Assembly: GCA_030666865.1 (NCBI GenBank)
Contig: DAOUWZ010000004.1
Span: forward strand, 1 to 57,450
DNA length: 57,450 bases
Direction: 5' to 3'
From: a bacterium
GTDB taxonomy: Bacteria; Patescibacteriota; Patescibacteriia; S139-126
The notes under the pieces: model-generated
The model's database searches: none
What the model was told of the DNA's origin: nothing
Seen by the model: the letters and a program-made list of their open reading frames with translations, nothing else
In this document: positions 8,275 through 56,351 of the stretch, piece after piece
Layout of the letters: the number at the start of each line of letters is the position of its first letter
Numbering within the stretch: the stretch's first letter is position 1
Position numbers and translations under genes: made by a program

Positions 8275-8931
8275 ATGAGGAGGGAGATTTTTTATCAAGG
8301 AGGGTTTTATCATATTTATAACCGCGGCGTTGATAAGCGGACAGTTTTTTGTGATGATAAAGATTATGAGAGATTTTTGTTGGGGTTAAATGTGTTTAAT
8401 CAAGTTGAATCGGTGGGTAATTTACGCGATTATATGAGGTTTCAGACATCCGATGTCCGGAGCTCCGGACATCGGATGTCTGAAAGAAAGCAACTAGTTG
8501 AGATAATCGTTTATTGTTTACTACCAAATCATTTTCATTTTATTTTGAAACAAATAGAGAAAGATGGGGTAAGTAAATTTATGCAAAAATTATCGAATGG
8601 TTATACTAAATATTTCAACACTAAATACCACCGTTCAGGAGTATTATTCCAAGGGAAATACAAAGTCAAGCATATTGATTCAGATGAATATTTACTTTGG
8701 CTATCTGCTTATATCAACGCCAATGCCGAAATACATAAAATAAAACCAGCTAATAAACATTGCTGGTCAAGCTACAGTAATTATGTTTTTGGTAAATCTG
8801 ATTTAGTGCCAGTGAATACCAGAATAGTGATGAGTAATTTTAGTAGTGGGGAAAATTATCAGAATTATTTGGATAAGATTATTCCGGTGTGGCAGGAACG
8901 AAAAGAGATAAAAGAATATATTATTGAATAA
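8275..8931 (+). CDS. IS200/IS605-type Y1 HUH transposase-like protein (REP-associated tyrosine transposase, RAYT-like)
   Basis: YHIYNRG N-terminal strand, HUH motif LLPNHFHFIL, GYTKYFN..RSG.LFQGKYK, and a catalytic-Tyr helix YINANAEIH. Single-copy gene without IS ends. Confidence 0.75.
   Translation: MRREIFYQGGFYHIYNRGVDKRTVFCDDKDYERFLLGLNVFNQVESVGNLRDYMRFQTSDVRSSGHRMSERKQLVEIIVYCLLPNHFHFILKQIEKDGVSKFMQKLSNGYTKYFNTKYHRSGVLFQGKYKVKHIDSDEYLLWLSAYINANAEIHKIKPANKHCWSSYSNYVFGKSDLVPVNTRIVMSNFSSGENYQNYLDKIIPVWQERKEIKEYIIE
8440..8485. repeat. P2-family perfect palindrome (46 bp) lying in frame inside the RAYT-like CDS
   Basis: TTTCAGACATCCGATGTCCGGAG|CTCCGGACATCGGATGTCTGAAA encodes FQTSDVRSSGHRMSE. 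Its 40-bp core is identical to the one at 20206-20245. Confidence 0.9.
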
Positions 8932-8942
8932 TTCATGTTCAG

Positions 8943-8963
8943 GTGAGCGGTCCGACCGCTCAC
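8943..8963. repeat. GC-rich hairpin between convergent genes
   Basis: GTGAGCGGT-ccg-ACCGCTCAC. No clear T-run on either strand. Confidence 0.5.
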
Positions 8964-12237: not shown

Positions 12238-12364
12238 ACAATTATTATATCCTGAAATTTGATAAATAAAAATAACCTAATTAGTTGGTAGGTTTGAGAT
12301 GACGGTTTTTAGTTAGGGTTATTATTTATTTAATATTACAAAATAATGGTGTCTCCAGCAGGAA

Positions 12365-12388
12365 TCCCTGCCTACCGGCAGGCAGGGA
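12365..12388. repeat. P1-family GC palindrome (variant, 1 mismatch)
   Basis: TCCCTGCCTACCGGCAGGCAGGGA, just downstream of tRNA-Arg. Confidence 0.85.
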
Positions 12389-12420
12389 ACCTTAATTAAG
12401 AATTGTAAATTTTATTAGTT

Positions 12421-12495
12421 TGGTGCCCTTGCCAGGAGTCGAACCTGAATTTCGAGATCCGCAATCTCGTGTTCTATCCATTGAACTACAAGGGC
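12421..12495 (-). tRNA. tRNA-Arg (anticodon GCG)
   Basis: Manual cloverleaf: acceptor GCCCTTG/CAAGGGC, D arm GTTC/GAAC, anticodon arm CGAGA-TTGCGGA-TCTCG, T arm TCAGG-TTCGACT-CCTGG, encoded CCA. Confidence 0.8.
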
Positions 12496-12725
12496 GCTTT
12501 AGAATAAGTACAAATATCTATTGCCAGCCCAAGGCTGGTTCGCCTTTGGCGGAAACTACAGGGACATTAGGTTATAGCAAGTAGATGTCAATTGTTTGTC
12601 CGCCGACGTGTCCGACGGAGTCTTGACGAAGTTGGAAGCTTTTGCGTAGGTTGGAACTAAGGAGACAATAATTATTATTAAATAAAACAAAAAGCCCACG
12701 CGTGAACTTTTTTATGTTCGCAAGA

Positions 12726-20198: not shown

Positions 20199-20252
20199 AA
20201 TAAAACAGACATCCGATGTCCGGAGCTCCGGACATCGGATGTCTGTTTTATT
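20199..20252. repeat. P2-family perfect palindrome (54 bp). Likely bidirectional terminator after lemA.
   Basis: AAATAAAACAGACATCCGATGTCCGGAG|CTCCGGACATCGGATGTCTGTTTTATTT. A/T runs flank both sides. Confidence 0.9.
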
Positions 20253-24142: not shown

Positions 24143-24212
24143 AGTTAGTTTTTAAATAGGCAGTATATAGAATTAAGAAATAAGGATACAGGTGAATTAT
24201 AAATCAGAAATC

Positions 24213-24257
24213 ACAAATTTTAAATTATACCTGCCTGCCGGCAGGCAGGAATCCTAA
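24213..24257 (+). repeat. 45-bp direct repeat (left copy), containing a P1 palindrome at 24230-24249
   Basis: ACAAATTTTAAATTATACCTGCCTGCCGGCAGGCAGGAATCCTAA is identical to 25575-25619. Confidence 0.9.
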
Positions 24258-24324: not shown

Positions 24325-24354
24325 TTTTTAGGTTATAGGTTTTAGTTATTAGAA
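24325..24354 (+). repeat. 'Empty-site' fragment of the SR composite repeat (no P1 palindrome)
   Basis: TTTTTAGGTTATA|GGTTTTAGTTATTAGAA has the same flanks as 30736-30786, minus the 20-bp palindrome. Confidence 0.8.
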
Positions 24355-24378: not shown

Positions 24379-24405
24379 AAAAAAGGGACCGTAGTTGGTC
24401 CCTTT
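24379..24405 (-). terminator. Intrinsic terminator (minus strand)
   Basis: GGGACC/GGTCCC stem followed by TTTTTT on the minus strand. A second hairpin (TTCCCCCGC..GCGGGGGAA, 24431-24452) abuts the stop codon. Confidence 0.7.
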
Positions 24406-24453
24406 CGTGGTGGGAGGTGACAATTTGTCATTCCCCCGCCTGGGCGGGGGAAT

Positions 24454-25407
24454 CTATTTTATTAAAATCATTTTTTTGACCTGGCTATATCCAGATTGAG
24501 TTGTGAGTTTATAAAAATAGGTTCCGGATGACAAGTTTTGGCCATCAAATGAATAGTTGTAGCTGCCAATAGACAGTTTTTCATCAACCAGAGTAGCCAC
24601 AGTTTGACCTAAGATATTATAAACGGTCAGATTTACGAAATCGGCTTTGTTGATAGAAAAAACGATGTTAGTCGCCGGATTAAACGGATTAGGATAATTC
24701 TGATTGAGTATAAATGATTCTGGAATGCCTTTATAAAAAGGTGATATATGAGAAACTAGATCATCGCCTCCCATATAATCTAAGACACAAGAATCTTTTT
24801 GAGAATGGAATCGAATTTGATCACAGATATGTGATATAGTATCGGAATTACCACCATCTTGGTAAATGAACAGACTGTCAATATGGGTGATTACTGGAAG
24901 TGGATCATTGCCATTTAGATTTTTCCAGTTATGAAAATAAATCGTAGTTGTGTCATCTTGCTCCATTGATTGTCCATCAATAAAACCGTAGCTACCAGAG
25001 TAGTACATTTCACCTTTGTGGCGTATCCAGATTTGGAAAGAGTTTGACGGTGAGTCTGTTATCATTTTCAAATCTGCATAAAGCATTAAATTTGTCATCC
25101 AATCAGGAATTATTGCTTCAGTACTGTCGGTATAGTCTTTGTAATAGAATACATATTCAGATCCAGGTGTTGGGTCGTGAGTGAATTTTAAAGCTTCACT
25201 TTCGCTACCACTTAGACCACAGCACGGATTTATATAGGCCGAGTCGGGTAGCTGAATATTATACTCAAACCATGGAGTTGTTTCTGGGTAACATGGGACA
25301 TACCCCAGTATTGGTTGAAGATTTGTTGAAGTTGTTTGCGCAAAAGTTGTTCCCACCAATCCTGCGAAGAGCAGGATTACGCTTAAAAAAGTTAGATATT
25401 TTTTCAT
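24454..25407 (-). CDS. Secreted protein with a T9SS-type (Por_Secre_tail) C-terminal sorting domain
   Basis: Signal peptide ending TFAQ. C-terminal NYPNPFNPATNIVFSI...VYNILGQTVATLVDE...SGTYFYKLT...KKMILIK matches the type-A T9SS CTD pattern. SD GGGAGGA. Confidence 0.7.
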   Translation of the reverse strand: MKKYLTFLSVILLFAGLVGTTFAQTTSTNLQPILGYVPCYPETTPWFEYNIQLPDSAYINPCCGLSGSESEALKFTHDPTPGSEYVFYYKDYTDSTEAIIPDWMTNLMLYADLKMITDSPSNSFQIWIRHKGEMYYSGSYGFIDGQSMEQDDTTTIYFHNWKNLNGNDPLPVITHIDSLFIYQDGGNSDTISHICDQIRFHSQKDSCVLDYMGGDDLVSHISPFYKGIPESFILNQNYPNPFNPATNIVFSINKADFVNLTVYNILGQTVATLVDEKLSIGSYNYSFDGQNLSSGTYFYKLTTQSGYSQVKKMILIK

Positions 25408-25505: not shown

Positions 25506-25574
25506 GTCTAGGGAGTGGATATGCTGTGAATATTAGTATTTAGAAGTTAGTAGATAGGAGGAGGTAAATAAATT

Positions 25575-25619
25575 ACAAATTTTAAATTATACCTGCCTGC
25601 CGGCAGGCAGGAATCCTAA
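25575..25619 (+). repeat. 45-bp direct repeat (right copy), containing a P1 palindrome at 25592-25611
   Basis: Identical to 24213-24257. Confidence 0.9.
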
Positions 25620-29843: not shown

Positions 29844-30368
29844 ATGTTTTTTAAAAATTTAGCTTTACCAATGAGAGCTCAACCTTTTCATATTGGTCAT
29901 GCTCGGTATATTAAGCAATTTAGTAAAATGTGTAACAGAGGTTTAATATTTTTATCTAAAGAATATGATTTAGAGGAAAATCCTTTTTTATACAAGACAA
30001 GGGAATTTTGGATTAATAAATTTTTGTCTGTTGAAAATATAAATAATATTTTAATTGCTAAGAGAGAGAAAAAGCTAGTTGATATATCAGGTAAATATGA
30101 AGAATATGTTAATTGTTTTGACACTACTGACTTTGTTGTTATCACCACTAACGAAACAGATAATATTTATAAATTGACAGGACTTCAAACATTCAATCAT
30201 CATGATCCTGATTTTGTAAAAGAAATTTGGGGAAAGAGTTTAGGACGCATTAAGTTATTTTCTACTGGAAGAATTATCAGAGAAAGATTAAAGAAAGATT
30301 TGGATTGTTCAGACTATTTAACACCCTTGGTATATAAAGAGGCTAGAATGGTTATGCAAAACATTTAA
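29844..30368 (+). CDS. HxGH nucleotidyltransferase (cytidylyltransferase superfamily, NadM-like)
   Basis: MRAQPFHIGH (RFQPxHxGH-type) and STGRIIR (ISSTxIR-type). Strong SD AGGAGGTG. Confidence 0.65.
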   Translation: MFFKNLALPMRAQPFHIGHARYIKQFSKMCNRGLIFLSKEYDLEENPFLYKTREFWINKFLSVENINNILIAKREKKLVDISGKYEEYVNCFDTTDFVVITTNETDNIYKLTGLQTFNHHDPDFVKEIWGKSLGRIKLFSTGRIIRERLKKDLDCSDYLTPLVYKEARMVMQNI

Positions 30369-30400
30369 TAACCCGTGAACACCCGGGTTATTTTTTATTT
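30369..30400 (+). terminator. Intrinsic terminator closing the five-gene island
   Basis: TAACCCG-loop-CGGGTTA followed by TTTTTTATTTT. Confidence 0.75.
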
Positions 30401-30458
30401 TATATTCTCCGATTGCTGTTGGATGGCTAAAGTGTTTTTTTGTATAATAATTATCTAC

Positions 30459-30516
30459 ATTAACATACCTACATCCGATGTCGGGATTTCCCGACATCGG
30501 ATGTAGGTATGTTAAT
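30459..30516. repeat. P2-family palindrome (58 bp, variant)
   Basis: ATTAACATACCTACATCCGATGTCGGGA-tt-TCCCGACATCGGATGTAGGTATGTTAAT. It shares the ACATCCGATGTCSGGA core with 8440-8485 and 20199-20252. Confidence 0.9.
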
Positions 30517-30660
30517 AGTTTTTTTGAATTTGATAAAATTATATCTTGACATTATTTTTTGTTATGATATTCTATTATTACATATAAAAAAGAGCAAAGC
30601 TCTAGTATGTATGCCGGTTAGCGTAAATTAGAATATAGGCGGCATTCAGAATCAATAAGG

Positions 30661-30696
30661 AATTACTTATTTAATTACGTAATTAAATAAGTAATT
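30661..30696. repeat. Perfect 36-bp AT-rich palindrome
   Basis: AATTACTTATTTAATTAC|GTAATTAAATAAGTAATT, nested in a longer CAATAAGG/CCTTATTG stem. Confidence 0.9.
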
Positions 30697-30730
30697 AAAT
30701 AAAAACCCTTATTGATTGAGGGATTTTTTA

Positions 30731-30858
30731 ATTAGTTTTTAGGTTATACCTGCCTGCCGGCAGGCAGGGGTTTTAGTTATTAGAAGATGAGAATTATTAA
30801 ATCTACAACCTGAAAACTAGCAACTAACAACTATAACCTAAAAACTAACAACTATTCT
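30731..30858 (+). repeat. SR composite repeat, copy A (P1 palindrome at 30749-30768), ending at the rpsL ATG
   Basis: A 55-nt block (30734-30788) is identical to 31290-31344. A 31-nt block (30824-30854) is identical to 31373-31403. Confidence 0.9.
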
Positions 30859-31284
30859 ATGCCTACAATTAATCAATTATTGAAAAAACCAAGGAAATCA
30901 AAGCATAAAAAGTCTAATAGTCCGGCTATTCAGACTGTTTTTAATGTGCTGAAAAGAAGACGGACGACTTTGCCAAAAGGAGCAGGTTTTAAACGCGGAG
31001 TATGTTTGAAAGTAACCACTACTACGCCAAAAAAACCAAATTCTGCTTTGCGGAAGATTGCCAGAGTTAGACTTTCAAATGGCATGGAAGTGACCGCTTA
31101 TATTCCAGGTATGGGTCATAATTTACAAGAACATAGTGTTGTTTTGGTTAGAGGCGGTCGGGTTAGCGATTTGCCTGGTGTGCGTTATAAGGTTGTCAGA
31201 GGGGTGTATGATGCTCAAGGCGTTGAAGGTAGAATGCAAAGCCGGTCTCGGTATGGCACTAAAAAGCCAAAAGCGAAGAAATAA
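30859..31284 (+). CDS. rpsL: 30S ribosomal protein S12
   Basis: [12 protein letters not shown]...[10 protein letters not shown]...[18 protein letters not shown]. Confidence 0.97.
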
Positions 31285-31287
31285 TTA

Positions 31288-31407
31288 TCAGTTTTTAGGT
31301 TATACCTGCCTGCCGGCAGGCAGGGGTTTTAGTTATTAGAAGATTAAAGTTATTTAACCTACAACCTAAAGACTAACAACTATAACCTAAAAACTAACAA
31401 CTAATAT
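31288..31407 (+). repeat. SR composite repeat, copy B (P1 palindrome at 31305-31324), filling the rpsL-rpsG spacer
   Basis: See copy A. Confidence 0.9.
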
Positions 31408-31887
31408 ATGAGAGGAAAAAGAGCGCCAAAAAGAAAAATAATTCCAGATCCAAAATATAATTCAATTTTGGTTGCGAAGTTTATTAACCAAATAATGAGA
31501 AATGGTAAGAAAACATTAGCTCAAAAAATAGTTTATCAATGTTTTGATATGCTTCAAGAAAAAACCAAACAAAAATCAGTTGAAGTTTTTGAGAAATCAC
31601 TTAGAAATATTGCGCCGTCAGTAGAAGTTAAGGGTCGTCGGATCGGCGGAGCTAATTATCAGGTTCCGATTCCAGTTACTGGAGATAGAAAAAATACCTT
31701 AGCTTTTAGGTGGCTTATTGAAGCTGCTAAAAATAAAAAAGGCAAATCAATGGCTGAAAAATTGGCTAATGAATTGTTATTAGCTTTGAATAATGAAGGT
31801 GATACTATCAAAAAGAAACAGGATGTACAGCGTATGGCTGAATCAAATAGAGCATTTGCTCATTTTGCAAATTATAAGAGAAGATAA
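31408..31887 (+). CDS. rpsG: 30S ribosomal protein S7
   Basis: Conserved S7 sequence (PDPKYNS..VAKFIN..MRNGKK, VEVKGRRIGGANYQVP). Confidence 0.97.
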   Translation: MRGKRAPKRKIIPDPKYNSILVAKFINQIMRNGKKTLAQKIVYQCFDMLQEKTKQKSVEVFEKSLRNIAPSVEVKGRRIGGANYQVPIPVTGDRKNTLAFRWLIEAAKNKKGKSMAEKLANELLLALNNEGDTIKKKQDVQRMAESNRAFAHFANYKRR

Positions 31888-32008
31888 GTCAGGTTATACC
31901 TACCTGCCGGCAGGCAGGGGTTTTAGTTATTGAAAGACTGAGAATTATTAAACCTACAATCTAAAAATTATTAACTAACAACTACAACCTAAAAACTAAC
32001 AACTAACT
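31888..32008 (+). repeat. SR composite repeat, copy C (P1 variant at 31899-31918, 1 mismatch), filling the rpsG-fusA spacer
   Basis: Same architecture as copies A and B. Confidence 0.85.
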
Positions 32009-34090
32009 ATGGCACGAGAATATTCTTTAGAAAAAACAAGAAATATCGGTATTATCGCTCATATTGATGCTGGAAAAACAACCGTAACAGAGCGGGTTTT
32101 GTATTATACTGGTAAAAAACATAAAATTGGCGAAGTTCATGATGGCGAAGCAGAAATGGATTGGATGGAGCAAGAACAAGAAAGAGGAATTACCATTACC
32201 TCGGCTGCGACTACATGTTTTTGGAAAGATTATCGTTTTAATATCATTGATACCCCAGGTCATGTAGATTTTACTGCTGAGGTAGAAAGAAGTTTGCGGG
32301 TATTGGATGGCGGGGTTGTTATTTTTGATGGAGTAGCTGGTGTAGAATCGCAATCAGAAACAGTTTGGCGGCAAGCTGACAAATATCAAGTTCCGAGAAT
32401 TGCATTTATAAATAAAATGGATAGAATGGGAGCTGATTTTTATTTTGATATGGATACTATTCATCAGCGGTTGACCAAAGACGCTTATCCGATCCAACTT
32501 CCCATTGGGGCAGCTGAAACTTTTCAAGGCGTAGTTGATTTGATAGAACAAAAAGCTTATTATTATCAAGATGATCTTGGAGTTAAGATTGAAGAAAAAG
32601 AAGTTCCAGCAGAATTATCAGAAAAAGTCGAAGAATATCGATCAAAAATGATTGAGGCTATTGTAGAAAATGATGAAGAATTAATGCATAAATATTTAGA
32701 AGGAGAAAATATTTCCGTTGACGAACTTAAGGGGGCGCTTAGAAAAGGTGTTATTGCAAATAGTATTGTTCCTGTTTTATGCGGGTCAGCTTTGAAAAAT
32801 AAAGGAGTGCAGTTATTACTTGATGCGGTTAATTATTATCTACCGTCTCCGGTTGATATTGACCCGCCAGTTGGTCATGATCCAGAAGATGAAAAAAAGG
32901 AAATACCTTTGCAAGTTGGCGATGATCAACCAGTAGTTGGTTTGGCTTTCAAAGTAGCCACTGATCCATATGTAGGTCGGTTGACATTTTATCGGGTTTA
33001 TTCTGGAACTTTAAAATCAGGTAGTTATTTGATTAACAATACCAATGGTACTAAAGAGAGAGTCAGTCGACTGTTGCGGATGCATGCTAATCACCGTGAA
33101 GACGTAGATGAAATATATGCCGGAGAGATTGCTGCGATAGTTGGTTTGAAAAAAACTACTACTGGAGATACTTTATCTGATGCTAGTTTACCAATCAATT
33201 TGGAAAAGATTGATTTTCCAGATCCAGTTATTTCTATTGCCGTTGAACCAAAAACAAAACAAGATCAAGAAAAAATGGGTCTAGCTCTGCAAAGATTGGC
33301 TGAAGAAGATCCAACTTTCAGAGTTAAAACTGATGAAGAAACTGGGCAGGTAATTATTTCTGGTATGGGCGAGCTTCATTTGGATATTATTATTGATCGG
33401 ATGAGAAGAGAATTTAGTGTTGAGGCTAATATTGGTGAACCACAAGTAGCTTATAAAGAAACCATTCGAAAAACAGCAGAAGCAGAAGGAAAATATATTC
33501 GTCAATCTGGTGGACGCGGTCAGTACGGCCATTGTTTACTCCGAATTGAACCAAATGGAGATGGTAAGGGTTATGAATTTAATGATAAAATAAAAGGCGG
33601 CACTATTCCCAAAGAATATATTCCAGCAATTGATAAAGGTATTAAAGAAGCAATGGAAAATGGTGTTTTGGCAGGTTATCCAATACTTGATATTAAAGTG
33701 ACGGTATATGACGGTTCGTTTCATGAAGTTGATTCCTCAGAATCAGCCTTTAAAATTGCTGGTTCCAAAGCATTCCAGGCAGCTTTCAAAAAAGCTGGTC
33801 CAGTATTGCTTGAACCAATTGAAAAAATCGAAGTAGTTGTACCGGAAGAATTTATGGGTGATGTTATTGGCGATTTAAATTCAAAAAGAGGTCAGATAAT
33901 TGAAATGAATGATCGAGGTAAAAATAAGGTAATTGAAGCTAATGTCCCACTTGCTTCAATGTTTGGCTATGTAACTACCTTGCGTTCTATGACTCAAGGC
34001 CGAGGAACTTCCACAATGGAATTTGATCATTTTGCCGATGTTCCAAACAATGTTGCTAAAGATATTATTGAAGGCAAAGAAGCGAAGTAG
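32009..34090 (+). CDS. fusA: Elongation factor G
   Basis: G1 [22 protein letters not shown] and full-length EF-G domains. Confidence 0.97.
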
Positions 34091-34183
34091 GTTACAGTTG
34101 TCAGGTTATAGGTTTTAGGAATTATTTAATTTTCTAATACCTATGAACCAAAACCTACAACCTAATAACTAACAACTAAATTT
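34091..34183 (+). repeat. SR composite repeat, copy D (lacks the P1 palindrome: CAGGTTATA|GGTTTTAG)
   Basis: Same arms and the same G-poor right half (AACCTACAACCTAATAACTAACAACTAA) as copies A-C. Confidence 0.75.
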
Positions 34184-34498
34184 ATGTCACAATGGTCAGA
34201 CATAATTAGCACAGTAAAAAAAATAAATAGAGAAGTAATTATAATAGATGGCGATAAGACTTTTGTGGTAATGGATTTGGCTAAATATGATGAATTGTTA
34301 TCAAAAGAGGATATTTTGGATATGAATGAGGATGAATTTTTAAACGAGATTAATAGACAAGTAGCAGTTTGGAAGTTAAATCATGAGCAGGATCAAGAAA
34401 CAGCAGTGGCTTCTAGTATAGAAACAGCTAATGATAAAGAGTATCAGAAAGATAAAAATAGTGATGATGATACTTTTTATATCGAACCAGTAGAATAG
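34184..34498 (+). CDS. Hypothetical acidic protein with a Phd/YefM-like N-terminal segment
   Basis: REVIIIDGDKTFVVMDLAKYDELL resembles the antitoxin beta-alpha core. Acidic tail. No adjacent toxin ORF. Confidence 0.35.
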   Translation: MSQWSDIISTVKKINREVIIIDGDKTFVVMDLAKYDELLSKEDILDMNEDEFLNEINRQVAVWKLNHEQDQETAVASSIETANDKEYQKDKNSDDDTFYIEPVE

Positions 34499-34637
34499 TA
34501 GATTTGTGGTGTAATTGATTTTGTTATAAAACATTTCCACATGTTTTCAAGGGTAAGTATTACAATTTGGTAGATTTGGCTAATTTTAGCAAAAAAATAA
34601 AATATTTTTAGTAAAAATAGTGAATTATTAAGACTAC

Positions 34638-34666
34638 TTGCTATTATTAAAAAATTTTGTTATAAT
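34638..34666 (+). promoter_or_regulatory. Sigma70 promoter (TTGCTA-N17-TATAAT) dedicated to tuf
   Basis: TTGCTA at 34638-34643 and TATAAT at 34661-34666. The leader to the tuf ATG is about 110 nt. Confidence 0.6.
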
Positions 34667-34784
34667 CACCAAGCATAATTATTGAATAATATAAGTTTAA
34701 ATTAATAAAATATTAACGACTGGGTAAAACCCTTACTTTTTGTTTAGAGTAATTGGGGTCGTTGATTCTAAAGGAAATAAAAAT

Positions 34785-35975
34785 ATGGCAGAACAGTTTG
34801 ATCGCTCAAAAGAGCATGTTAATGTAGGTACAATTGGTCACGTTGATCATGGTAAAACTACATTGACAGCAGCTATCTTAAAGACATTAAGTACAAAAGG
34901 TAAAGCTGCCCAAGATAAATCAGTAGATCAGATTGATAACGCTCCAGAAGAGAAAGAGCGTGGTATTACTATTGCTACTGCTCATGTGGAGTATGAGTCA
35001 GATAAACGTCATTATGCTCATGTAGATTGTCCTGGGCATGCTGATTATGTAAAAAATATGATTACTGGTGCCGCTCAAATGGACGGTGCTATTTTAGTAG
35101 TCGCAGCAACTGATGGCCCTATGCCTCAGACAAGAGAACATATTTTACTTGCTAAACAAGTAGGTGTTCCTTACATTGTGGTCTTTTTAAATAAAATTGA
35201 TCAGGTTGATGACCCAGAGTTAATTGATTTGGTTGAAGAAGAAGTTAGAGATTTGTTGAAAAAATATGAATTCCCAGGAGATAAAACTCCGATTATTAGA
35301 GGCAGTGCTTTGAAAGCTTTGGAAAATTCAAATGATGAAGAAGCAACTAAGCCAATCATGGAATTGATTGATGCTTTGGATAATTATGTGCCAACTCCAG
35401 TCAGGGATGTTGATAAGGCATTTTTAATGCCTGTTGAAGATATTTTTTCAATTGAAGGTAGGGGAACTGTGGTTACAGGCAGAATTGAAAGAGGTATTGT
35501 AAATGTTGGGGAAGAAATTGAAATAGTTGGTATTAGAGATACTCAAAAAACAATAGTTACAGGTGTAGAGATGTTTAACAAGACTTTAGATCAGGGTCAG
35601 GCTGGTGACAATGCCGGTATTTTACTCAGAGGTACCAAAAAAGAAGAAGTTGAAAGAGGACAAGTTTTATGTAAGCCTGGCAGTATTACTCCTCATACTG
35701 AAATTGAAGCTGAAGTTTATATTTTATCCAAAGAAGAAGGTGGTAGGCACACTCCGTTTTTTAATGGTTATAAACCACAGTTTTATATTCGTACCACAGA
35801 TGTTACTGGTGATGTAATCTTACCAGAAGGTACTGAAATGGTAATGCCTGGTGATACTGTTAATTTGAAAATTAAATTGATTGTACCGGTTGCTCTTGAA
35901 GAAAAACAAAGATTTGCTATCCGTGAAGGCGGTAGGACAGTAGGTGCTGGTGCTGTGACCAAGATTGTTAAATAA
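34785..35975 (+). CDS. tuf: Elongation factor Tu
   Basis: The ATG at 34785 gives the canonical [26 protein letters not shown]. The track start at 34740 is an upstream TTG. Confidence 0.97.
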
Positions 35976-36077
35976 TTTTGATTTTAGTTTAAGTCCCTCA
36001 CTTATGTGAAGTGGGGGATATAAGTGGAATTAAATTTTTGTAAAGAAGTCTAAAACCACAAAGATTAATAAAAAATC

Positions 36078-36437
36078 ATGGTAGAAACTAAGACAGAAAC
36101 TAAGAAAACGGTAAAGGCGACTGAAGAAGATCAGAAGTCACGAATTAGGATTAAAATTAAGGCTTACGATCATAAAGTTATTGATCAAGCAGCTAAAAAA
36201 ATATTGGAAACGGCTGAGCGGAATGGTGCAGTGATTGCTGGTCCGGTACCGTTGCCTACTGCCAAGAAAAAATTCACAGTCCTTAATTCCACATTTGTTC
36301 ATAAAGATTCGCGTGATCAATATGAAATGCGAATTCACAAAAGATTAATAGATATTTTTGAACCAACTCCAAAAATAATAGAATCGCTTTCAAGTTTGAA
36401 TTTGCCAGCTGGAGTTGATATAGAGATAAAGATGTAA
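36078..36437 (+). CDS. rpsJ: 30S ribosomal protein S10 (N-terminally extended)
   Basis: [15 protein letters not shown] core preceded by an extra ~17-aa Lys/Thr/Glu-rich N-terminus. Confidence 0.95.
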
Positions 36438-36559
36438 ATTTTCATTTGGTAAAGATCTAGTATCAATTTCTAGAAAACTATCAAAAGAATATATTATATT
36501 TTTAGAAAGGTTAAAAAAAGCATATACAATTCTGGAAAAGAAAATCATTTTTTCAGAAG

Positions 36560-36647
36560 CCGATCCACCTAGTTACTTTATATATATTATTAGACTAATT
36601 ACGCGACAAGTCTAATAATAGAGTAAGTAGGTGGAACGGTTTTTGTT
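36560..36647 (+). repeat. Long imperfect hairpin plus T-run (terminator-like) in the rpsJ-rplC spacer, with a nested copy of the TAGACT...AGTCTA element
   Basis: CCGATCCACCTAGTTACTT... pairs with ...AGTAAGTAGGTGGAACGG, followed by TTTTTGTTT. The inner sequence is TTATTAGACTAATTACGCGACAAGTCTAATAA. Confidence 0.7.
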
Positions 36648-36703
36648 TATAAAAATTTGATTAATCATTTATTTATAGAACAAGTTTAAGTTAAAAAAAT
36701 TTA

Positions 36704-37543
36704 ATGTCAAAGCAAGAAAATAAAAATAAGAATTTTATTTTAGGTCAAAAACAGTCAATGACCAAAGTTTTTAATGCTAAAGGCGAAGCAGTGCCAGTTA
36801 CAATTGTAATGGCGGGTCCTTGCCGTGTTATTCAAGTAAAAAATGACAATAAGGAAGAATATCGGGCTGTGCAACTTGGTTTTGGCAAAAAAAATAAATT
36901 AACCAAATCTTTGCTTGGGCATATGAAAGGAATGCCGAATTTTAGATATATTCGCGAATTTAAGTATAAAATTGGTGAGTTGCCAGCAGGTTTAGAAAAA
37001 GGCAAAGAAATAAAAGTAGATACTTTTAGCGTAGGCGAGAGAGTAAAAGTTATTGGTATTGGTAAAGGTAAGGGTTTTCAAGGAGTAGTAAAAAGACATG
37101 GTTTTCATGGTAGTCCAGCATCGCATGGCCATAAAGATCAGTTGAGAATGCCGGGTTCAATTGGAGCTACTGACGCTGCCAGAGTATTCAAAGGTACAAA
37201 AATGGGCGGTCGTATGGGTGGCAGACAAGTTACAGTAAGTAATTTGGAGATTGTAAAAATTGATGTTGATAACAATTTGCTTTATTTGAAAGGGGCTGTC
37301 CCGGGAGTGAGAAAAGGATTTTTAAAAATTGAAGGATCGGGTGAGTTAAAATTTGACAATGCTAGTAAAACAGAGACAAGTGACAAAGGGCAACAAACAA
37401 AAGGCGAGCGACAAGAGATAGAAAATACAAAATTTTCCGTTTCACAAGGTGAAGCAGGGCAGGAGGTAAAAACAGATAATGGACAGGATGCCAGTAAGAA
37501 GCGACAAGACACAAAAAACAAGAATACAGACAAAACGAGATAA
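36704..37543 (+). CDS. rplC: 50S ribosomal protein L3 (C-terminally extended)
   Basis: L3 core (FQGVVKRHGFHG..ASHG) plus a ~65-aa K/Q/E/T-rich tail. Confidence 0.95.
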   Translation: MSKQENKNKNFILGQKQSMTKVFNAKGEAVPVTIVMAGPCRVIQVKNDNKEEYRAVQLGFGKKNKLTKSLLGHMKGMPNFRYIREFKYKIGELPAGLEKGKEIKVDTFSVGERVKVIGIGKGKGFQGVVKRHGFHGSPASHGHKDQLRMPGSIGATDAARVFKGTKMGGRMGGRQVTVSNLEIVKIDVDNNLLYLKGAVPGVRKGFLKIEGSGELKFDNASKTETSDKGQQTKGERQEIENTKFSVSQGEAGQEVKTDNGQDASKKRQDTKNKNTDKTR

Positions 37544-37634
37544 AGTAATTAAGTTTTAGACATTTGAATTTAGATATTAGAATTTAGGATTTATTAAAGT
37601 GTTTATACTATATATTAACCACTAGATACTATTT

Positions 37635-38264
37635 ATGGCAAAAGTTAAAGTATACAATTCAGAGGGCGAGGAAGTAAAAGAAAAGAAACTTTCAGCTAAA
37701 ATTTTTGAACATAAAATAAATCCAGAAGTTATTCATGATGTAGTGGTTGCTATGGAAGCTAATAAGAGAATACCATATGCTCATACTAAAGGCAGAAGTG
37801 AAGTTCGGGGCGGAGGAAAAAAACCTTGGCGGCAAAAAGGTACAGGCAGAGCTCGTCACGGATCTAGTCGTTCGCCTTTATGGAGCGGCGGCGGCGTAAC
37901 CTTTGGTCCTACTAGCGAAAGAAATTATAAAAAGAAAATAAATAAAAAGGTAAAGCAAGCCGCTTTGTTTATGATATTGACTGATAAGTTAAATGAACAA
38001 GCTATGTGTGTTATTGACAAGATAGATTTAAAAGAAATGAAAACAAAAAAATTTTTAGAGATTATCAATGTTTTACCAGTTAAAGAAAAAAAGACATTAG
38101 TTATAATTGCCGATCCAGATGTCAAAGTAGAAAAATCAGCTAGAAATTTACCAAAGGTAAAAATGATAAAATCACAAAATATTAATATTTTGGATTTATT
38201 ATCTTATTCTGGAGTATTGTTTACCGAAAAAGCAATTGATTCATTAGAAAAGATTTATTCATAA
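37635..38264 (+). CDS. rplD: 50S ribosomal protein L4
   Basis: GGGKKPWRQKGTGRARHGS. Confidence 0.95.
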   Translation: MAKVKVYNSEGEEVKEKKLSAKIFEHKINPEVIHDVVVAMEANKRIPYAHTKGRSEVRGGGKKPWRQKGTGRARHGSSRSPLWSGGGVTFGPTSERNYKKKINKKVKQAALFMILTDKLNEQAMCVIDKIDLKEMKTKKFLEIINVLPVKEKKTLVIIADPDVKVEKSARNLPKVKMIKSQNINILDLLSYSGVLFTEKAIDSLEKIYS

Positions 38265-38267
38265 AAT

Positions 38268-38741
38268 ATGAAGATTAAAGATTTATTTAAAAAAGAAAAT
38301 AAAGACGAATTAGATAAGCCAGTTGTAAAAACAGATAAGACTGAAGCGGTTGATATTGATAAAAATATTAAACCAGACGATAGTAAAACAAGTAAGGCTA
38401 CAAAACCAGTAATTGATAAAAAACAAGTTAAAGACCTAAAGAACAAAAAAGGATTGGATATATCATATAGAGTATTGCTAAAGCCGTTGGTGACTGAAAA
38501 AGGTTCTTCACAGGTGGCTTTGGGCAAATATTTATTTATGGTAGCGCTTGATGCCAATAAGATTATGATAGCCAAAGCAGTTGAAAGAACATATGGAGTA
38601 AAAGTATCACGTGTTAATATAATGAATTATTCAGGCAAAAGAGTGAAACGCGGTAGAGTTTCAGGAAAACGAAAAGATTGGAAAAAAGCTATCGTGACTT
38701 TGAAAAAAGGTCAAACTATTGAAGTATTTAAAGGAGTATAA
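38268..38741 (+). CDS. rplW: 50S ribosomal protein L23 (N-terminally extended)
   Basis: The L23 core starts near YRVLLKPLVTEKG. It is preceded by about 60 aa of Lys/Asp-rich sequence. Confidence 0.9.
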   Translation: MKIKDLFKKENKDELDKPVVKTDKTEAVDIDKNIKPDDSKTSKATKPVIDKKQVKDLKNKKGLDISYRVLLKPLVTEKGSSQVALGKYLFMVALDANKIMIAKAVERTYGVKVSRVNIMNYSGKRVKRGRVSGKRKDWKKAIVTLKKGQTIEVFKGV

Positions 38742-38743
38742 TT

Positions 38744-39583
38744 ATGGTAATTGTTAAATACAAACCAACCACCCCGGGCAGACGTTTATCATCAGTAAAC
38801 AGAAATAGTGATTTAGTCAAACCGAAGCAGAGGAGTTTGCTTAAAAGTAAGAAAAGTTCTTCGGGCAGAAATAATCAAGGTAAAATAACTATTCGTCGTA
38901 GAGGTGGCGGAGCAAAAAGGCATTATCGCATCATTGATTTTAAGCGTGATAAATTTGATATACCAGCAAAAGTTGTGGCATTGGAATATGATCCAAATCG
39001 AAGTGCTAATATTGCTTTCTTGCAGTATGCTGATGGAGATAAGAGATACATTATTGCTGGTCAAGGCTTGAAAGTAGGACAAGTAATTTTATCTAGCAAT
39101 AAAAAAATTGACATTAAGACTGGTAATAATATGCCACTTGAATATATTCCAGCTGGACAAGTATTGAATAGTGTTGAATTGATTCCTGGTGCGGGAGCCA
39201 AGTTGGCTCGTAGCGCTGGTAATGAGATAATATTGATGGGCAGGGAAAAAGGAATGGCTCAATTGAAAATGCCATCAAGTGAGATACGTCTTATTCCAGA
39301 AGGTTGTAGAGCAACATTGGGAGAGGTTGGTAATGCAGAACATGGTAATATTAGATGGGGTAAAGCTGGAAGAATGAGACATCGTGGCAAACGCCCACAA
39401 GTAAGAGGTAAAGCTATGAATCCAGTAGATCATCCGCATGGCGGTGGTGAAGGTAGTCAGCCTATTGGCATGAAACATCCAAAGACCAAATGGGGTAAGC
39501 CAGCCTTGGGAGTTAAAACTAGAAAGAAAAATAAAGCTAGTAACAGATTGATATTAAAAAGAAGAAAAACTAAGAAAAGATAA
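38744..39583 (+). CDS. rplB: 50S ribosomal protein L2
   Basis: GRNNQGKITIRRRGGG...MNPVDHPHGGGEG. Confidence 0.97.
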   Translation: MVIVKYKPTTPGRRLSSVNRNSDLVKPKQRSLLKSKKSSSGRNNQGKITIRRRGGGAKRHYRIIDFKRDKFDIPAKVVALEYDPNRSANIAFLQYADGDKRYIIAGQGLKVGQVILSSNKKIDIKTGNNMPLEYIPAGQVLNSVELIPGAGAKLARSAGNEIILMGREKGMAQLKMPSSEIRLIPEGCRATLGEVGNAEHGNIRWGKAGRMRHRGKRPQVRGKAMNPVDHPHGGGEGSQPIGMKHPKTKWGKPALGVKTRKKNKASNRLILKRRKTKKR

Positions 39584-39609
39584 ACTAGTATATTGTATAT
39601 AGTAGATAG

Positions 39610-39629
39610 CCTGCCTGCCGGCAGGCAGG
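39610..39629. repeat. P1-family 20-bp GC palindrome in the rplB-rpsS spacer
   Basis: CCTGCCTGCCGGCAGGCAGG, exact. Confidence 0.95.
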
Positions 39630-39713
39630 TATGTAGCAAAAATATGAACAGTGAAGACAAACTAATCTTATATACTACCTATATACTATATACTAAATAC
39701 TAAATACAAAAAT

Positions 39714-40004
39714 ATGAGTAGAAGTTTAAAAAAAGGTCCATTTGTTGATGAAAAATTATTAAAAAAGATTTCAAAGGCAAAAGATACTGGAGACAAAAAG
39801 CCGATTAAGACATGGTCTAGAAGTAGCACCATCATTCCTGAAATGGTGGGCATGAATTTCGCGGTTCATAATGGTAAGGCACATTTACCTGTGTTTGTTG
39901 TTGAAAATATGGTTGGCCATAAATTGGGAGAGTTTTCTCCTACTAGAAAATTTGTTAAGCATGGCGGTAAGATGCAAAAAGAACAGGATAAATCTGGTAA
40001 ATAA
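39714..40004 (+). CDS. rpsS: 30S ribosomal protein S19
   Basis: [11 protein letters not shown]...VHNGK...VGHKLGEF. Confidence 0.97.
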
Positions 40005-52482: not shown

Positions 52483-52754
52483 AAGAAAGTATTATGTATC
52501 AAGTATTATGTATTAAGTATTAATACAAAAATCAAAAGTTTGGTACAATATTAATAATTTCTAATTACTCTAATTATATTAATTTCTAACTAAATCCCAA
52601 ATAATAAAAGTTTTTTAAGTTTTTAGTCATTGCAAATTAATTGGTATTTGTTTAGGTCAATTAGGTTAATTAGAAATTAGGCTAATTATTTTTGTTTTAT
52701 ATTTTACATTATCAATTATCATTTTGATTTTTGAATTATATCTAACACTTAATA

Positions 52755-53051: not shown

Positions 53052-53056
53052 AGATT

Positions 53057-53116
53057 AGTTGTTAGTGATTAGGTTATAGTTGTTAGTGATTAGGTTATAG
53101 TTGTTAGTGATTAGGA
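53057..53116 (-). repeat. 21-bp tandem repeat (2.9 copies), part of an SR-like element between dnaB and ybaB
   Basis: AGTTGTTAGTGATTAGGTTAT occurs twice, followed by an 18-nt partial copy. The complementary G-poor arm (ACCTATCACCTACAACCTATAACC) follows at 53129-53152. Confidence 0.9.
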
Positions 53117-53151
53117 ATTTTATCTAAAACCTATCACCTACAACCTATAAC

Positions 53152-54528
53152 CTAGAATTGTGGTTCTGGCATTGGGGTTGTATTTTTAGCTTTATTTTCA
53201 AATCTGACTTTTTCTTCATTAAAAATAAGTTCAATCTTGCCAGTTGGTCCGTTTCTGTGTTTAGCTATGAATATTTCAGCAATATTTCTGCGATCAGGAT
53301 CAGTTTCTTCTCGTTTATACATATATTCCCTATAAATAAACACAACAATATCTGCATCTTGTTCAATAGAACCAGATTCTCGTAAGTGAGCGAGTTTTGG
53401 AATAGGGGGTTTTTCAAGTTCAACTGCACGGGAAAGTTGAGAAAGGGCAAGTACTGGTATATTTAGTTCGCGAGCTAAAGCTTTTAAAGCCCTGGTAATT
53501 TCAGCTACTTCTTGGACGCGGTTATCACTATTTTTTGATCGACCTTCCATCAATTGCAAATAGTCAACAACTATTAGCTCAAGTCCGTGTTCGCTTTTTA
53601 GTCTTCTGGCTTTAGTTCTCAGTTCCATTATATTTGATGAAGCGGAATCGTCAATAAATATTGGCGCTTCGGAAAGCGTGGCCATAGCATGACCAATGCG
53701 AGGAAAATCATTATCAGTTTCTCGGTCAGATAAGCGGCCAGTTCGCATTTTCCATAAATCAACTCCAGCTTCAGCGCAAAGCATACGGTCAACCAATTGT
53801 TCTTTACTCATTTCCAATGAAAAAATTCCGACTGGATGTTTATTTTTGCCGATCAGCCTGGCAATATCAAGGGCTAAAGTAGTTTTACCCATTGACGGTC
53901 GGGCTGCCAATATTATTAAGTCTGATTTTTGCAAGCCAGCCAGTTTATTATCCAGATCATAAAAACCGGTTGGCACACCTCTGATTTTTCCGCCTTCCTT
54001 ATGTAATTCGTCAATTCTTTCAAAAGTATCATCTAAAACAGATTTAACAGGAATAAAATTTTGCTTTAAATGTTTCTGGGAAATTTGAAATATTTTTTGT
54101 TCAGCTTGATCAAGCAGGGCATCAACTTTTTCTTCTTCGCTGAATCCCAATGAAGTTATTTCCTGAGCTGCAATTATCATTTTTCTAAGCGCTGCTTTTT
54201 TCTGGATAATATTGGCATAAGAGACAATATTTGAAGAAGTAACCACGGCGTTAGTCAGTTCTGTTAGGTAAGTCCGGCCGCCAATTTTTTCCAGAATTTT
54301 TTTCTCAGTCAGTCGATTGGTCAAACTAAGCAGATCAATTGGTTCTCTTTCTGAATATAATTCCAACATTAGTTCAAAAATATTTTGATGAGATTCTTTA
54401 TAAAAATCTTCAGTAGAGATAGTGTCAGCGATTTTTGATATCGCATCGGAATCAATTAAAATAGAGCCCAAAACATTAGTTTCAGCCTCCAGATTTTGTG
54501 GTGGTAATTTTTCAATATTATTACTCAT
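53152..54528 (-). CDS. dnaB: Replicative DNA helicase DnaB
   Basis: PPQNLEAETNVLGSIL, Walker A ARPSMGKTT and the RecA-like C-terminal domain. Confidence 0.95.
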   Translation of the reverse strand: MSNNIEKLPPQNLEAETNVLGSILIDSDAISKIADTISTEDFYKESHQNIFELMLELYSEREPIDLLSLTNRLTEKKILEKIGGRTYLTELTNAVVTSSNIVSYANIIQKKAALRKMIIAAQEITSLGFSEEEKVDALLDQAEQKIFQISQKHLKQNFIPVKSVLDDTFERIDELHKEGGKIRGVPTGFYDLDNKLAGLQKSDLIILAARPSMGKTTLALDIARLIGKNKHPVGIFSLEMSKEQLVDRMLCAEAGVDLWKMRTGRLSDRETDNDFPRIGHAMATLSEAPIFIDDSASSNIMELRTKARRLKSEHGLELIVVDYLQLMEGRSKNSDNRVQEVAEITRALKALARELNIPVLALSQLSRAVELEKPPIPKLAHLRESGSIEQDADIVVFIYREYMYKREETDPDRRNIAEIFIAKHRNGPTGKIELIFNEEKVRFENKAKNTTPMPEPQF

Positions 54529-55921: not shown

Positions 55922-55997
55922 TGGGCCGTTAGCTCAGTTGGTAGAGCGCCAGGCTTTTAACCTGGGCGTCACAGGTTCGAATCCTGTACGGCCCACC
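55922..55997 (+). tRNA. tRNA-Lys (anticodon UUU)
   Basis: Acceptor GGGCCGT/ACGGCCC, anticodon arm CCAGG-CTTTTAA-CCTGG, T arm ACAGG-TTCGAAT-CCTGT, encoded CCA. Confidence 0.9.
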
Positions 55998-56004
55998 ATA
56001 AAAA

Positions 56005-56041: not shown

Positions 56042-56184
56042 ATTTTGATTGTTTCAGGATTCGAACGGGCAGGAGCGAGTATTGAGCAGAGCGAAATAAA
56101 CGAGCGACGACCAAAGCGAGTAAGCGTAGCTTTGGGCGCTGCCCAGTACAACGAAGTTGAGTGAAGCGAAACGAGGCGGAAATC

Positions 56185-56204
56185 CCTGCCTGCCGGCAGG
56201 CAGG
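56185..56204. repeat. P1-family 20-bp GC palindrome interrupting a duplicated tRNA-Lys 3' end
   Basis: CCTGCCTGCCGGCAGGCAGG, exact, flanked by GAAATC| and |CTGTACGGCCCACCAT. Confidence 0.95.
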
Positions 56205-56220
56205 CTGTACGGCCCACCAT
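56205..56220 (+). repeat. 16-nt direct repeat of the tRNA-Lys 3' end
   Basis: CTGTACGGCCCACCAT is identical to 55983-55998. Confidence 0.9.
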
Positions 56221-56351
56221 TCGACTCGCTCCTATAAGGAGTTCGCTCATGGTCTGCAGCACTAACATGCTTTTGACCACTCTCATTTATTATCTTCGCG
56301 AGTCGAATGCCCTGAGCCTGCCGAAGGGCAAATTTAAAAATCTCTTAACCT

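Follow-up and report, generated by a model that had tools for sequence, protein, structure and literature searches.

How does a palindrome of 20 bases come to stand between two sequences that lie joined elsewhere in the same genome? The question is raised by positions 24325–24354 of the 57,450-base stretch of bacterial DNA analysed here (the whole stretch is hereafter called the window). These positions read TTTTTAGGTTATAGGTTTTAGTTATTAGAA, i.e. the sequences TTTTTAGGTTATA and GGTTTTAGTTATTAGAA (13 + 17 nt) are contiguous. At 30736–30785 and 31292–31341 the same two sequences are split by exactly CCTGCCTGCCGGCAGGCAGG, a perfect, GC-rich, hairpin-forming palindrome (hereafter PAL). A third filled copy (31890–31931) has a one-base variant of PAL (CCTACCTG...) between the shorter flanks CAGGTTATA and GGTTTTAGTTATT, and the contiguous CAGGTTATAGGTTTTAG at 34102–34118 holds a second, shorter empty copy. 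Our analyses reveal that PAL is a discrete insertion unit and that a minimal GIY-YIG (UPF0213-like) nuclease gene, itself wedged into tRNA genes, is closely linked to it. With a probability of about 0.6, we regard PAL as a 20-bp non-coding mobile hairpin at home in minimal GIY-YIG/tRNA cassettes, from which solo copies have spread in this genome.

The initial annotation had read the copies described above as filled and empty sites, and inspection of the sequence confirms the contiguous flanks at 24325–24354 and near 34103 and the exact palindrome between them at 30749 and 31305; the copy at 31899 differs in its one changed base and its shorter flanks. The boundaries of the indel are unique, i.e. 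a shift of one base to either side fails to give the empty sequence. The window contains the joined 30-mer a single time, and dinucleotide shuffles give no match to it when up to 3 mismatches are allowed (0 expected). The looser pattern AGGTTATA-N(0–30)-GGTTTTAG has six window matches against 0.01 expected, with gaps of 0 (two sites), 20, which is PAL (three sites), and 14 (one site, two extra heptamers on the minus strand at 53124–53153). Homology between filled and empty copies runs further left, to TTGAGGGA, and the shared stretch of the 34103 copy is only 16–18 nt long. There is practically no chance that these copies are unrelated AT-rich words or that PAL arose as an artefact of assembly or library preparation. 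G+C is 33% in this genome, and many chance matches to a relaxed flank pattern turn up in metagenomes, but the identical 30-nt flank match has no expected occurrence, Logan contigs of three runs from different studies are identical to the window over 29900–40000 though fragmented at the repeats, PAL occurs in isolate genomes and long-read chromosomes, and some of its copies are mutated, nested or in frame.

Filled and empty sites here represent paralogues of a single intergenic repeat rather than one locus compared across strains. The three filled copies adjoin one another in one operon, so that the window alone may record as few as one event. With up to 3 mismatches allowed, PAL occurs eight times in the window where none is expected, and its flanks fall into at least five unrelated contexts. 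A search for exact PAL in one genome per species returned at least 120 stretches, labelled as CPR (candidate phyla radiation)/Patescibacteria groups, Bacteroidota, Omnitrophota, Planctomycetota, Nitrospirota, Desulfobacterota/delta-proteobacterial groups, Chloroflexi and others, where the taxon labels of some binned genomes may be unreliable. Cultured isolates (including Bacteroidota) are among the carriers. In viral contigs, 35 PAL stretches were found, whereas neither of two control palindromes matched to PAL in composition and repeat structure occurred there.

Across 121–165 distinct PAL sites, the flanks are unrelated, pairing ends at 20 nt and there is no general target duplication. The sole flank bias is an A at position -1 (41% against 9% for T, counted over half-sites). 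Host inverted repeats of at least 6 bp lie within 8 nt of PAL at 15 sites against 2.0 expected (maximum 5), which fits the preference for single-stranded hairpin loops that the initial annotation had implied. PAL is also nested in PAL (L018, L042 and L340; L numbers are our locus handles), and other hairpins lie in the loop of PAL (L329, L335 and L345). Taken together, the control palindromes, the unrelated flanks, the nesting and the loop enrichment exclude chance, simple-sequence expansion and artefact as sources of PAL copies.

The direction of change can be read at some sites. In a phage tRNA-Met gene (L221), PAL lies between G46 and U47, and the same tRNA lacks PAL in L312 and L313; a related phage (L198) has PAL plus a 13-nt deletion. 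Every case with a readable direction is a gain without duplication. Precise gain without duplication or scar thus stands for the window repeat, the phage tRNA-Met gene and 26 tRNA 5' copies described below, while the precise loss that had been proposed alongside it finds no such case; loss could equally arise by gene conversion from an empty paralogue.

Several observations concern the unit itself. In L340 (1601–1660), L360 (1000–1040) and L345 (upstream of the nuclease gene), two to three tandem PAL or PAL-like units lie in one tRNA D-loop, each after a copy of the local GGTAGA, which suggests repeated insertion at one point. The variant CCTGCCTACCGGCAGGCAGG, present in the window at 12367, recurs in unrelated genomes (two sites in L086, and L087, L234 and L244); the changed base is the partner of the final C in the central GCCGGC, and the variant may be either a propagating sub-family or a mutational hot spot (e.g. 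through deamination of a methylated C). At 3773–3792 of L104 (minus strand), PAL lies within an apparently intact gatB frame, read as ..ETD-DLPAGRQ-VVYTPL.. in a surface loop; the frame holds only at 21 nt, which implies either an additional base or an indel that compensates. A unit of 21 nt (A+PAL or PAL+T), considered on account of this case and the A bias at -1, is no general rule, since the tRNA and repeat cases are exactly 20 nt. At the locus end of a viral contig (L230, 3919–4142), at least 11 tandem 21-nt units GCCATGCCTACCGGCAGGCAG form a PAL-like hairpin, and more PAL-like sequences occur in the neighbouring open reading frame (ORF).

What lies next to PAL? In 5 of about 155 loci found through PAL itself (L037, L118, L228, L106 and L060), a small GIY-YIG gene lies 16–47 nt from PAL, measured to the tblastn match or the ORF start of the nuclease gene; the background in control loci is three such genes over 1.18 Mb and none over 0.44 Mb. 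The layout is a tRNA 5' part with PAL, the nuclease gene and an intact copy of the same tRNA, and in L060 this whole unit lies inside an hsdS-like gene. When PAL was removed from this sample in silico, ARAGORN regained a full tRNA at one site only (L030), which indicates that most tRNA-like PAL contexts are fragments.

The reverse test covered 80 loci (197 kb) that encode relatives of the PAL-neighbour GIY-YIG protein. This protein matches PF01541 and consists of the catalytic domain only (76–88 aa, Slx1/YhbQ-like); its closest solved relatives are UPF0213 proteins of 96–107 aa. According to a 2006 survey (PMC1564403), the Slx1-like GIY-YIG domains that stand alone in prokaryotes are minimal, and one of them occurs as a fusion to a tRNA Gm18 methyltransferase. 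The 80 loci contain 44 PAL-like sites. PAL lies at most 140 nt upstream of 29 of the 80 nuclease genes, and an expanded or shortened PAL is present at 7 more. Nearly all of these PALs are in a tRNA D-loop (...GGATA-PAL-GAGC..., ...GGCGAA-PAL-ATTGGTAGAC...). Downstream of 55 of the 80 genes stands an intact tRNA, in most cases with no more than about 30 nt between stop codon and tRNA start, and at least 14 others have a tRNA immediately upstream. A mirror form, i.e. an intact tRNA, the gene and a 3' tRNA fragment with the hairpin in its T-arm, is present in at least 10 loci.

The relation between hairpin and tRNA is close. In 26 of the 27 analysable cassettes, the bases to the left of PAL duplicate nt 1..p of an intact tRNA located about 230–330 nt downstream, without mismatch in 23 of the 26; to the right of PAL the same tRNA continues for 5–40 nt in 25 of the 26. 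The insertion point p is 20–23 in 16 loci, 14–17 in 8 and 31–32 in 2. Other GC-rich hairpins hold the place of PAL in other cassettes (CCCGCCCG...CGGGCGGG and TCCGCCAGCTGGCGGA), and in a neighbour-joining tree the hairpin type tracks the nuclease clade (with separate clades for PAL, CCCGCCCG and TCCGCC), PAL being the commonest hairpin among the cassettes. The taxa labelled for nuclease loci largely coincide with those labelled for PAL loci.

Traces of such cassettes are present in the window, where three scars combine a tRNA fragment with a hairpin (Table 1). One is a 25-nt tRNA 3' fragment that lies 29 nt downstream of tRNA-Arg (12421–12495). Another, 19 nt upstream of the same intact tRNA-Arg, is a 5' fragment of it, and its layout is that of the first cassette arrangement described below without the nuclease gene. 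The third is a duplicated 3' end of tRNA-Lys, laid out as in the second arrangement; the intact tRNA-Lys lies at 55923–55998. About 145 nt downstream of the PAL at 56185 begins a GIY-YIG domain frame, probably a pseudogene, which is 38% identical to the nuclease of L228 and, in alignment A2, 23% to that of L037. The other window copies of PAL are solo insertions in heptamer arrays.

We propose the following explanation. PAL would be copied precisely into new sites, without target duplication, and would prefer single-stranded loops of foldable DNA, i.e. the D-, anticodon-, variable- and T-arms of tRNA genes, as well as loops within other palindromes and within PAL itself. The home of PAL may be a very small selfish cassette, spread over many bacterial phyla and phages, in which a gene for a 76–88-aa Slx1/YhbQ-like GIY-YIG protein is wedged in a tRNA gene in either of two arrangements: (i) tRNA nt 1..p, hairpin and nt p+1..p+q, followed by the nuclease gene and the intact tRNA; or (ii) the intact tRNA, followed by the nuclease gene and a 3' tRNA fragment with the hairpin in its T-arm. 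Because tRNA arms are nearly universal, cassette and hairpin could cross phyla. The nuclease would break folded or D-arm-like DNA, and repair would then copy from a PAL-bearing donor. Since the donor PAL directly precedes the continuation of the tRNA, the new strand could re-anneal across the break after copying the hairpin alone. Early re-annealing would leave a solo PAL and late re-annealing the whole cassette, and folding back of the copied palindrome may favour early release. In this genome, solo PALs would have spread to eight sites in 57 kb, including the leader hairpins of rpsL, rpsG and fusA, and the 'empty' sites would be paralogous repeat copies that received no insertion.

A wider reading, to which we give slightly less than even odds, is that PAL and the minimal GIY-YIG gene belong to a family of ultra-small homing cassettes, present in many bacterial phyla, that attack folded arms of tRNA genes, with the hairpin as a leading end that can be copied alone. 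The uncharacterised stand-alone GIY-YIG proteins of the UPF0213/YhbQ-like kind might then be structure-directed selfish nucleases, and the GC-rich hairpins of AT-rich CPR and Bacteroidota genomes their footprints.

The window also encodes a Y1 (HUH) protein similar to REP-associated tyrosine transposases (RAYT; REP, repetitive extragenic palindromic), which the initial annotation had proposed as the mobilising enzyme. PAL would then be a hairpin similar to REPs or PATEs (palindrome-associated transposable elements), cut and pasted as single-stranded DNA by this transposase. The gene lies 3.4 kb from one PAL copy, the lack of target duplication and the preference for hairpin loops are expected of single-strand HUH transposition, and PAL-like sites are present in 6 of 80 Y1-homologue loci. 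These loci were fetched at 36–51% protein identity, and all are labelled as Patescibacteria/CPR-type or unclassified. In the six, however, PAL lies 2–10 kb from the Y1 gene and never adjacent to it, and only 1 of 120 PAL loci contains a (weak) Y1 match. Y1 genes are instead accompanied by hairpins of another type. In the 10 Y1 loci with a trackable shared hairpin core, a genome-specific hairpin stands before the start, about 180 nt inside the gene and after the stop, e.g. GTC-GGGTGTTGGACACCC-GAC at 9833, 10183 and 10676 around and in the gene at 10001–10483 of L310 (type GTC-GGGTGT..ACACCC-GAC) and GTA-GACGTC-S-GACGTC-TAC in L267 (9968, 10184 and 10717), L276 and L242. The Y1 gene of the window contains a different palindrome (GACATC-S-GATGTC in two inverted copies, hereafter D6) at the same internal position. 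Both observations suggest that this Y1 protein is a RAYT partnered with the D6 type rather than with PAL. On gene context the Y1 protein is thus probably not the partner of PAL, whose consistent neighbour is a GIY-YIG gene.

REP and REPIN elements with their RAYT (Y1 HUH) transposases (Bertels and Rainey 2011, PMC3116915) resemble PAL in that both are short, extragenic, non-coding multicopy palindromes, presumably moved in trans and without target duplication. By contrast, REPs are lineage-specific, flank the RAYT gene and have a conserved 5' tetranucleotide (GTAG-like), while PAL is identical across phyla, never flanks a Y1 gene, has no flank consensus beyond the A at -1 and has a GIY-YIG neighbour. 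PATEs, which derive from IS200/IS605, have distinct left and right imperfect hairpins and insert 3' of a fixed tetra- or pentanucleotide, whereas PAL is a single perfect palindrome with variable targets and without the conserved flanking tetranucleotide or guide sequence typical of IS200/IS605 elements and REPs. We therefore consider it quite unlikely that PAL is moved by the Y1 transposase; the genuine REP/RAYT candidate of the window is the D6 doublet with the Y1 gene.

The D6 system has features of its own. The Y1 protein of the window matches the REP-associated tyrosine transposase model NF047646 below its cut-off, and further D6 copies lie at 20206–20245 and 30468–30507 (a variant in which pairing is kept). 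Hairpin-flanked, hairpin-containing Y1 genes are also present in L308, L299, L292, L309, L305 and L280. The internal hairpin copy is kept in frame and co-varies between genomes with the flanking copies; a cognate hairpin within the transposase gene itself is unusual.

It is also possible that PAL is mainly a functional hairpin (an intrinsic terminator, an RNA-stabilizing stem or a processing site) that is maintained by selection, spreads by gene conversion between repeats and is lost by slippage or hairpin excision, without a dedicated enzyme. A consensus scan finds six window copies terminator-like, with GGTTTTAGTT behind each of the three copies in the repeat and, at 24230 and 25592, TATAATTTAA behind PAL on the minus strand. 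Conversion between the filled repeat copies is plausible, as they adjoin one another and are 62–87% alike, and hairpin loops could just be where insertion is tolerated. Conversion, however, cannot put one 20-mer into more than 160 unrelated contexts, among them tRNA arms, its own loop and the gatB frame, and convergent selection does not give identical 20-mers, as both control palindromes at 0 illustrate. Most PAL copies lack a U-tract, and the terminator feature is absent at 39610, 12367, 56185 and most public sites. In the cassettes PAL lies between the promoter side of the tRNA and the nuclease gene, where a strong terminator would silence the gene. A mainly functional role for PAL thus appears unlikely.

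The setting of PAL in the window raises a further possibility. The intergenic repeat that contains the filled copies is about 118 nt long and consists of degenerate heptamers (TAGGTTA, TAGGTTT, TAGTTAT, then the inverse CTAACAA, CTATAAC, CTAAAAA); it ends about 15 nt ahead of the start codons of rpsL, rpsG and fusA, and the copy at 30731–30848 has a predicted fold of dG -38.1 kcal/mol (z -5.6). Period-7 arrays, with or without PAL, are common in the intergenic DNA of the window, and six of the eight PAL copies sit in them. PAL might then be two abutted 10-bp terminal inverted repeats of a DDE transposon, i.e. a minimal MITE (miniature inverted-repeat transposable element), with 7-bp target duplications and with the heptamer arrays as insertion or excision footprints. 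The 7 nt to the left and right of PAL match at 6/7 or better at 13 of 159 sites against 0.35 expected (maximum 2), and the distribution is bimodal, with 20 sites at 5/7 or better. The excess is absent for 5, 6, 8, 9 and 10 nt. Nevertheless, wherever the empty state is known, i.e. for the 26 tRNA copies, in the phage tRNA-Met gene and in the window repeat, there is no duplication. Matching 7-mers flank every point within a period-7 array, so that the 7-nt signal reveals arrays rather than duplications, and heptamer arrays exist without PAL (34098–34179 and 53053–53154 in the window, plus metagenome loci). A DDE MITE requires a fixed-length target duplication and a parent element, and at the level of loci, as opposed to whole genomes, we found neither: no element bounded by GGCAGGCAGG...CCTGCCTGCC, no outward-facing pairs of half-sites and no recurrent transposase ORF near PAL in 155 loci. 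A DDE origin is very unlikely, and PAL lacks the defining features of REP/RAYT elements, IS200/IS605 derivatives and DDE MITEs alike.

The arrays themselves lie at 30815–30854, 31359–31404, 31950–32007, 34133–34179, 37555–37593, 39586–39711, 52487–52523 and 53053–53154. They are degenerate and pair with their own inverted copies into long hairpins that end about 15 nt before the starts of highly expressed genes, and no obvious Shine–Dalgarno sequence precedes those start codons. The array hairpins may act as leaders, processing sites or translational elements. An equivalent architecture with other heptamers is present in a viral contig of 67% G+C (L197, 10580–10670 and 11205–11325). The two 50-nt direct repeats that each contain PAL (24208–24257 and 25570–25619) are 98% identical and bracket a 1.36-kb segment with a gene at 24454–25407 (minus strand), which encodes a Por_Secre_tail domain. 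This segment also contains the 'empty' repeat copy and a pair of strong terminator hairpins, and it looks like a cassette bounded by PAL-bearing repeats. More short GC-rich hairpins (TTCGCCTTTGGCGGAA, CCAGCCCAAGGCTGG, ATTCCCCCGCCTGGGCGGGGGAAT and AGCGGTCCGACCGCT) lie at 12496–12660, 24381–24453 and 8944–8958, some of which resemble GIY-YIG cassette types elsewhere (the TCCGCC...GGCGGA type of L382, L385 and L386).

Table 1. Positions of PAL, its empty sites, tRNA-derived scars and candidate mobility genes in the window (strand '.' marks features given without orientation)
Feature	Coordinates	Strand	Remarks
Y1 (HUH) RAYT-like protein, 218 aa	8275–8931	+	PF01797 (Y1_Tnp), E 1.6e-8
D6 palindrome, 40 nt, REPIN-like	8443–8482	.	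Two inverted GACATC[C/G]GATGTC units, in frame inside the Y1 gene
25-nt tRNA 3' fragment, GGTTC-PAL-GATTCCTGCTGGAGACACCA	12347–12391	-	PAL variant CCTGCCTACCGGCAGGCAGG (12367–12386) in the T-loop
tRNA-Arg 5' fragment	12515–12565	-	18/21 nt identical to nt 1–21; hairpins TCCGCCAAAGGCGA and CCAGCCTTGGGCTGG inserted after nt 12
PAL, exact	24230–24249	.	Inside 50-nt direct repeat 24208–24257; heptamer array on the left
Empty copy	24325–24354	+	13 + 17 nt flanks of PAL 30749/31305, contiguous
PAL, exact	25592–25611	.	Inside second 50-nt repeat copy 25570–25619
Intergenic repeat of degenerate heptamers, about 118 nt	30731–30848	+	Folds as a long hairpin, PAL a side branch
PAL, exact	30749–30768	.	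5' arm of the heptamer-repeat hairpin upstream of rpsL
Further copies of the 118-nt repeat	31287–31404, 31882–31999		PAL-less copy at 34098–34179
PAL, exact	31305–31324	.	Same heptamer repeat, upstream of rpsG
PAL with one change (CCTACCTGCCGGCAGGCAGG)	31899–31918	.	Same heptamer repeat, upstream of fusA
Second empty copy, AGGTTATA joined to GGTTTTAG	34103–34118	+	In the repeat downstream of fusA
PAL, exact	39610–39629	.	In heptamer-array hairpin 39586–39711 (z -4.6), just upstream of the ORF starting at 39714
Duplicated tRNA-Lys 3' end, AAATC-PAL-CTGTACGGCCCACCAT	56180–56220	+	PAL 56185–56204 in the T-arm
GIY-YIG domain frame	56349–56624	+	PF01541, E 1.1e-10; no canonical start codon

The window has a G+C content of 32.8% and contains radA, the Y1 gene, recG, a valS-like gene, clpB, lemA, the rpsL-rpsG-fusA-tuf cluster and then dnaB, ybaB and recR. 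The best relatives of its S7 protein are 58–64% identical and come from metagenome-assembled genomes labelled Patescibacteria or 'uncultured Gammaproteobacteria'; the host genome is Patescibacteria-like. The window sequence is present in three metagenomes from different studies (marine sediment and cold seep). No single Logan contig covers a full PAL at 30749 or 31305, and contigs that are identical to the window and broken at the repeats leave rare variants with or without PAL invisible. In all three runs, the contigs over 29900–40000 contain a full-depth joint, ...TTAGGTTATACCTGCCTGCCGG/CAGGTTATAGGTTTTAGGAATT..., which probably stems from a further repeat copy, with a shortened PAL, at another place in the genome. 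A second joint skips 31330–31364, and both suggest further repeat variants beyond the window. A metagenome scan for more repeat copies gave chance AT-rich matches and a few PAL-less heptamer arrays, with no filled copy among them. The str operons of the nearest species-representative genomes (closest S7 64% identical) contain no PAL, and their intergenic DNA is not comparable; an exact-protein search for orthologous loci recovered only identical sequence. In an Rfam scan of the window, only three tRNAs attain the gathering score; neither PAL nor the repeat is covered by any family.

Several points weigh against a home of PAL in GIY-YIG/tRNA cassettes and its spread from them. The sole GIY-YIG sequence of the window is a start-less remnant of a more distant subfamily, and about 87% of the PAL sites found through PAL itself are solo copies that lack a neighbouring tRNA or nuclease gene. 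That hairpin and gene are adjacent and share descent is no proof that the nuclease inserts PAL. The repeat sites (TATA/GG) share only 2–3 nt (TA/G) with the D-loop sites of tRNA genes, so that repair there would rest on microhomology, and in the predicted repeat hairpin PAL occupies a stem rather than a loop. The cassette model explains neither the location of PAL in period-7 arrays nor how a cassette that enters a new tRNA species duplicates nt 1..p of the recipient. At the contig level, all examined sites are identical in the three metagenomes and no ongoing activity is visible.

Which known systems do PAL and its cassette resemble? Free-standing GIY-YIG homing endonucleases are exemplified by SegB of phage T4, encoded in a tRNA gene cluster (PMC2330249; review PMC2988022). 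The likeness lies in (i) a GIY-YIG gene beside or in a conserved target, (ii) a partial target duplicate that keeps an intact copy and (iii) an altered copy that adjoins the nuclease gene. Such endonucleases spread by break repair, which would be a natural mechanism here. The cassette nuclease differs from I-TevI and the Seg proteins in having no DNA-binding domain that gives site specificity, and the PAL cassette further differs in its many tRNA species and phyla and in a constant 20-bp hairpin at the junction that is also found solo elsewhere. In context, the PAL cassette has the features of a GIY-YIG homing cassette, with a putative nuclease activity. A mitochondrial endonuclease ORF that brought a partial duplicate of its host gene was reportedly described for atp6 of Allomyces by Paquin et al. 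in 1994.

PAL itself also invites comparison with very small mobile hairpins. G+C-rich clusters, double-hairpin elements and repetitive hairpin-forming elements are known from A+T-rich mitochondrial genomes (PMC4478555; PMC2800124). They resemble PAL as GC palindromes in an AT-rich genome that are mobile by the evidence of filled and empty sites, sometimes lie in genes and have an unknown mobiliser. They differ in being organellar, species-specific and 30–60 nt or more in length, in some target duplications in yeast and in having no tRNA-wedged nuclease cassette. Rickettsia palindromic elements (100–150 bp, one genus) can sit in frame in protein genes, as do PAL (..DLPAGRQ.. in gatB of L104) and D6 (in the Y1 gene). 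The small dispersed repeats (SDRs, 21–27 nt) of Nostoc and relatives, which Elhai et al. are said to have described in 2008 as precisely inserted, nestable hairpins, are like PAL in these respects but are restricted to cyanobacteria and have different sequences. Cyanobacteria also contain heptamer tandem repeats (STRR, short tandemly repeated repetitive sequences), with which SDRs are associated. We know of no enzyme for SDRs and of no reported link between them and nuclease or tRNA genes. With its filled and empty sites and its nesting, PAL answers the description of a very small mobile hairpin; this is a likeness of kind, not of family. We found no published occurrence of the 20-mer or its core in the literature, and no published description of a cassette of hairpin, tRNA and GIY-YIG gene.

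If the wider reading of a homing-cassette family is true, PAL would be the smallest mobile DNA unit known with a cross-phylum range. Should its link with the nuclease hold, the 20-bp sequence would itself be the horizontally spreading element, far below the usual size of mobile DNA, and its host range would depend on how universal tRNA structure is, not on the taxonomy of the host. A testable function would thereby be offered for a large family of tiny GIY-YIG proteins, together with an explanation for a class of partial tRNA genes and GC-rich hairpins. These make genomes of CPR bacteria, Bacteroidota and phages hard to annotate, and PAL and its relatives could serve as annotation markers of tRNA pseudo-fragments and cassettes. 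The system may also provide a natural setting for studying the repair of breaks in structured DNA from a very short template. In this Patescibacteria-like genome, two coexisting hairpin systems would be told apart: RAYT with D6, and GIY-YIG with PAL.

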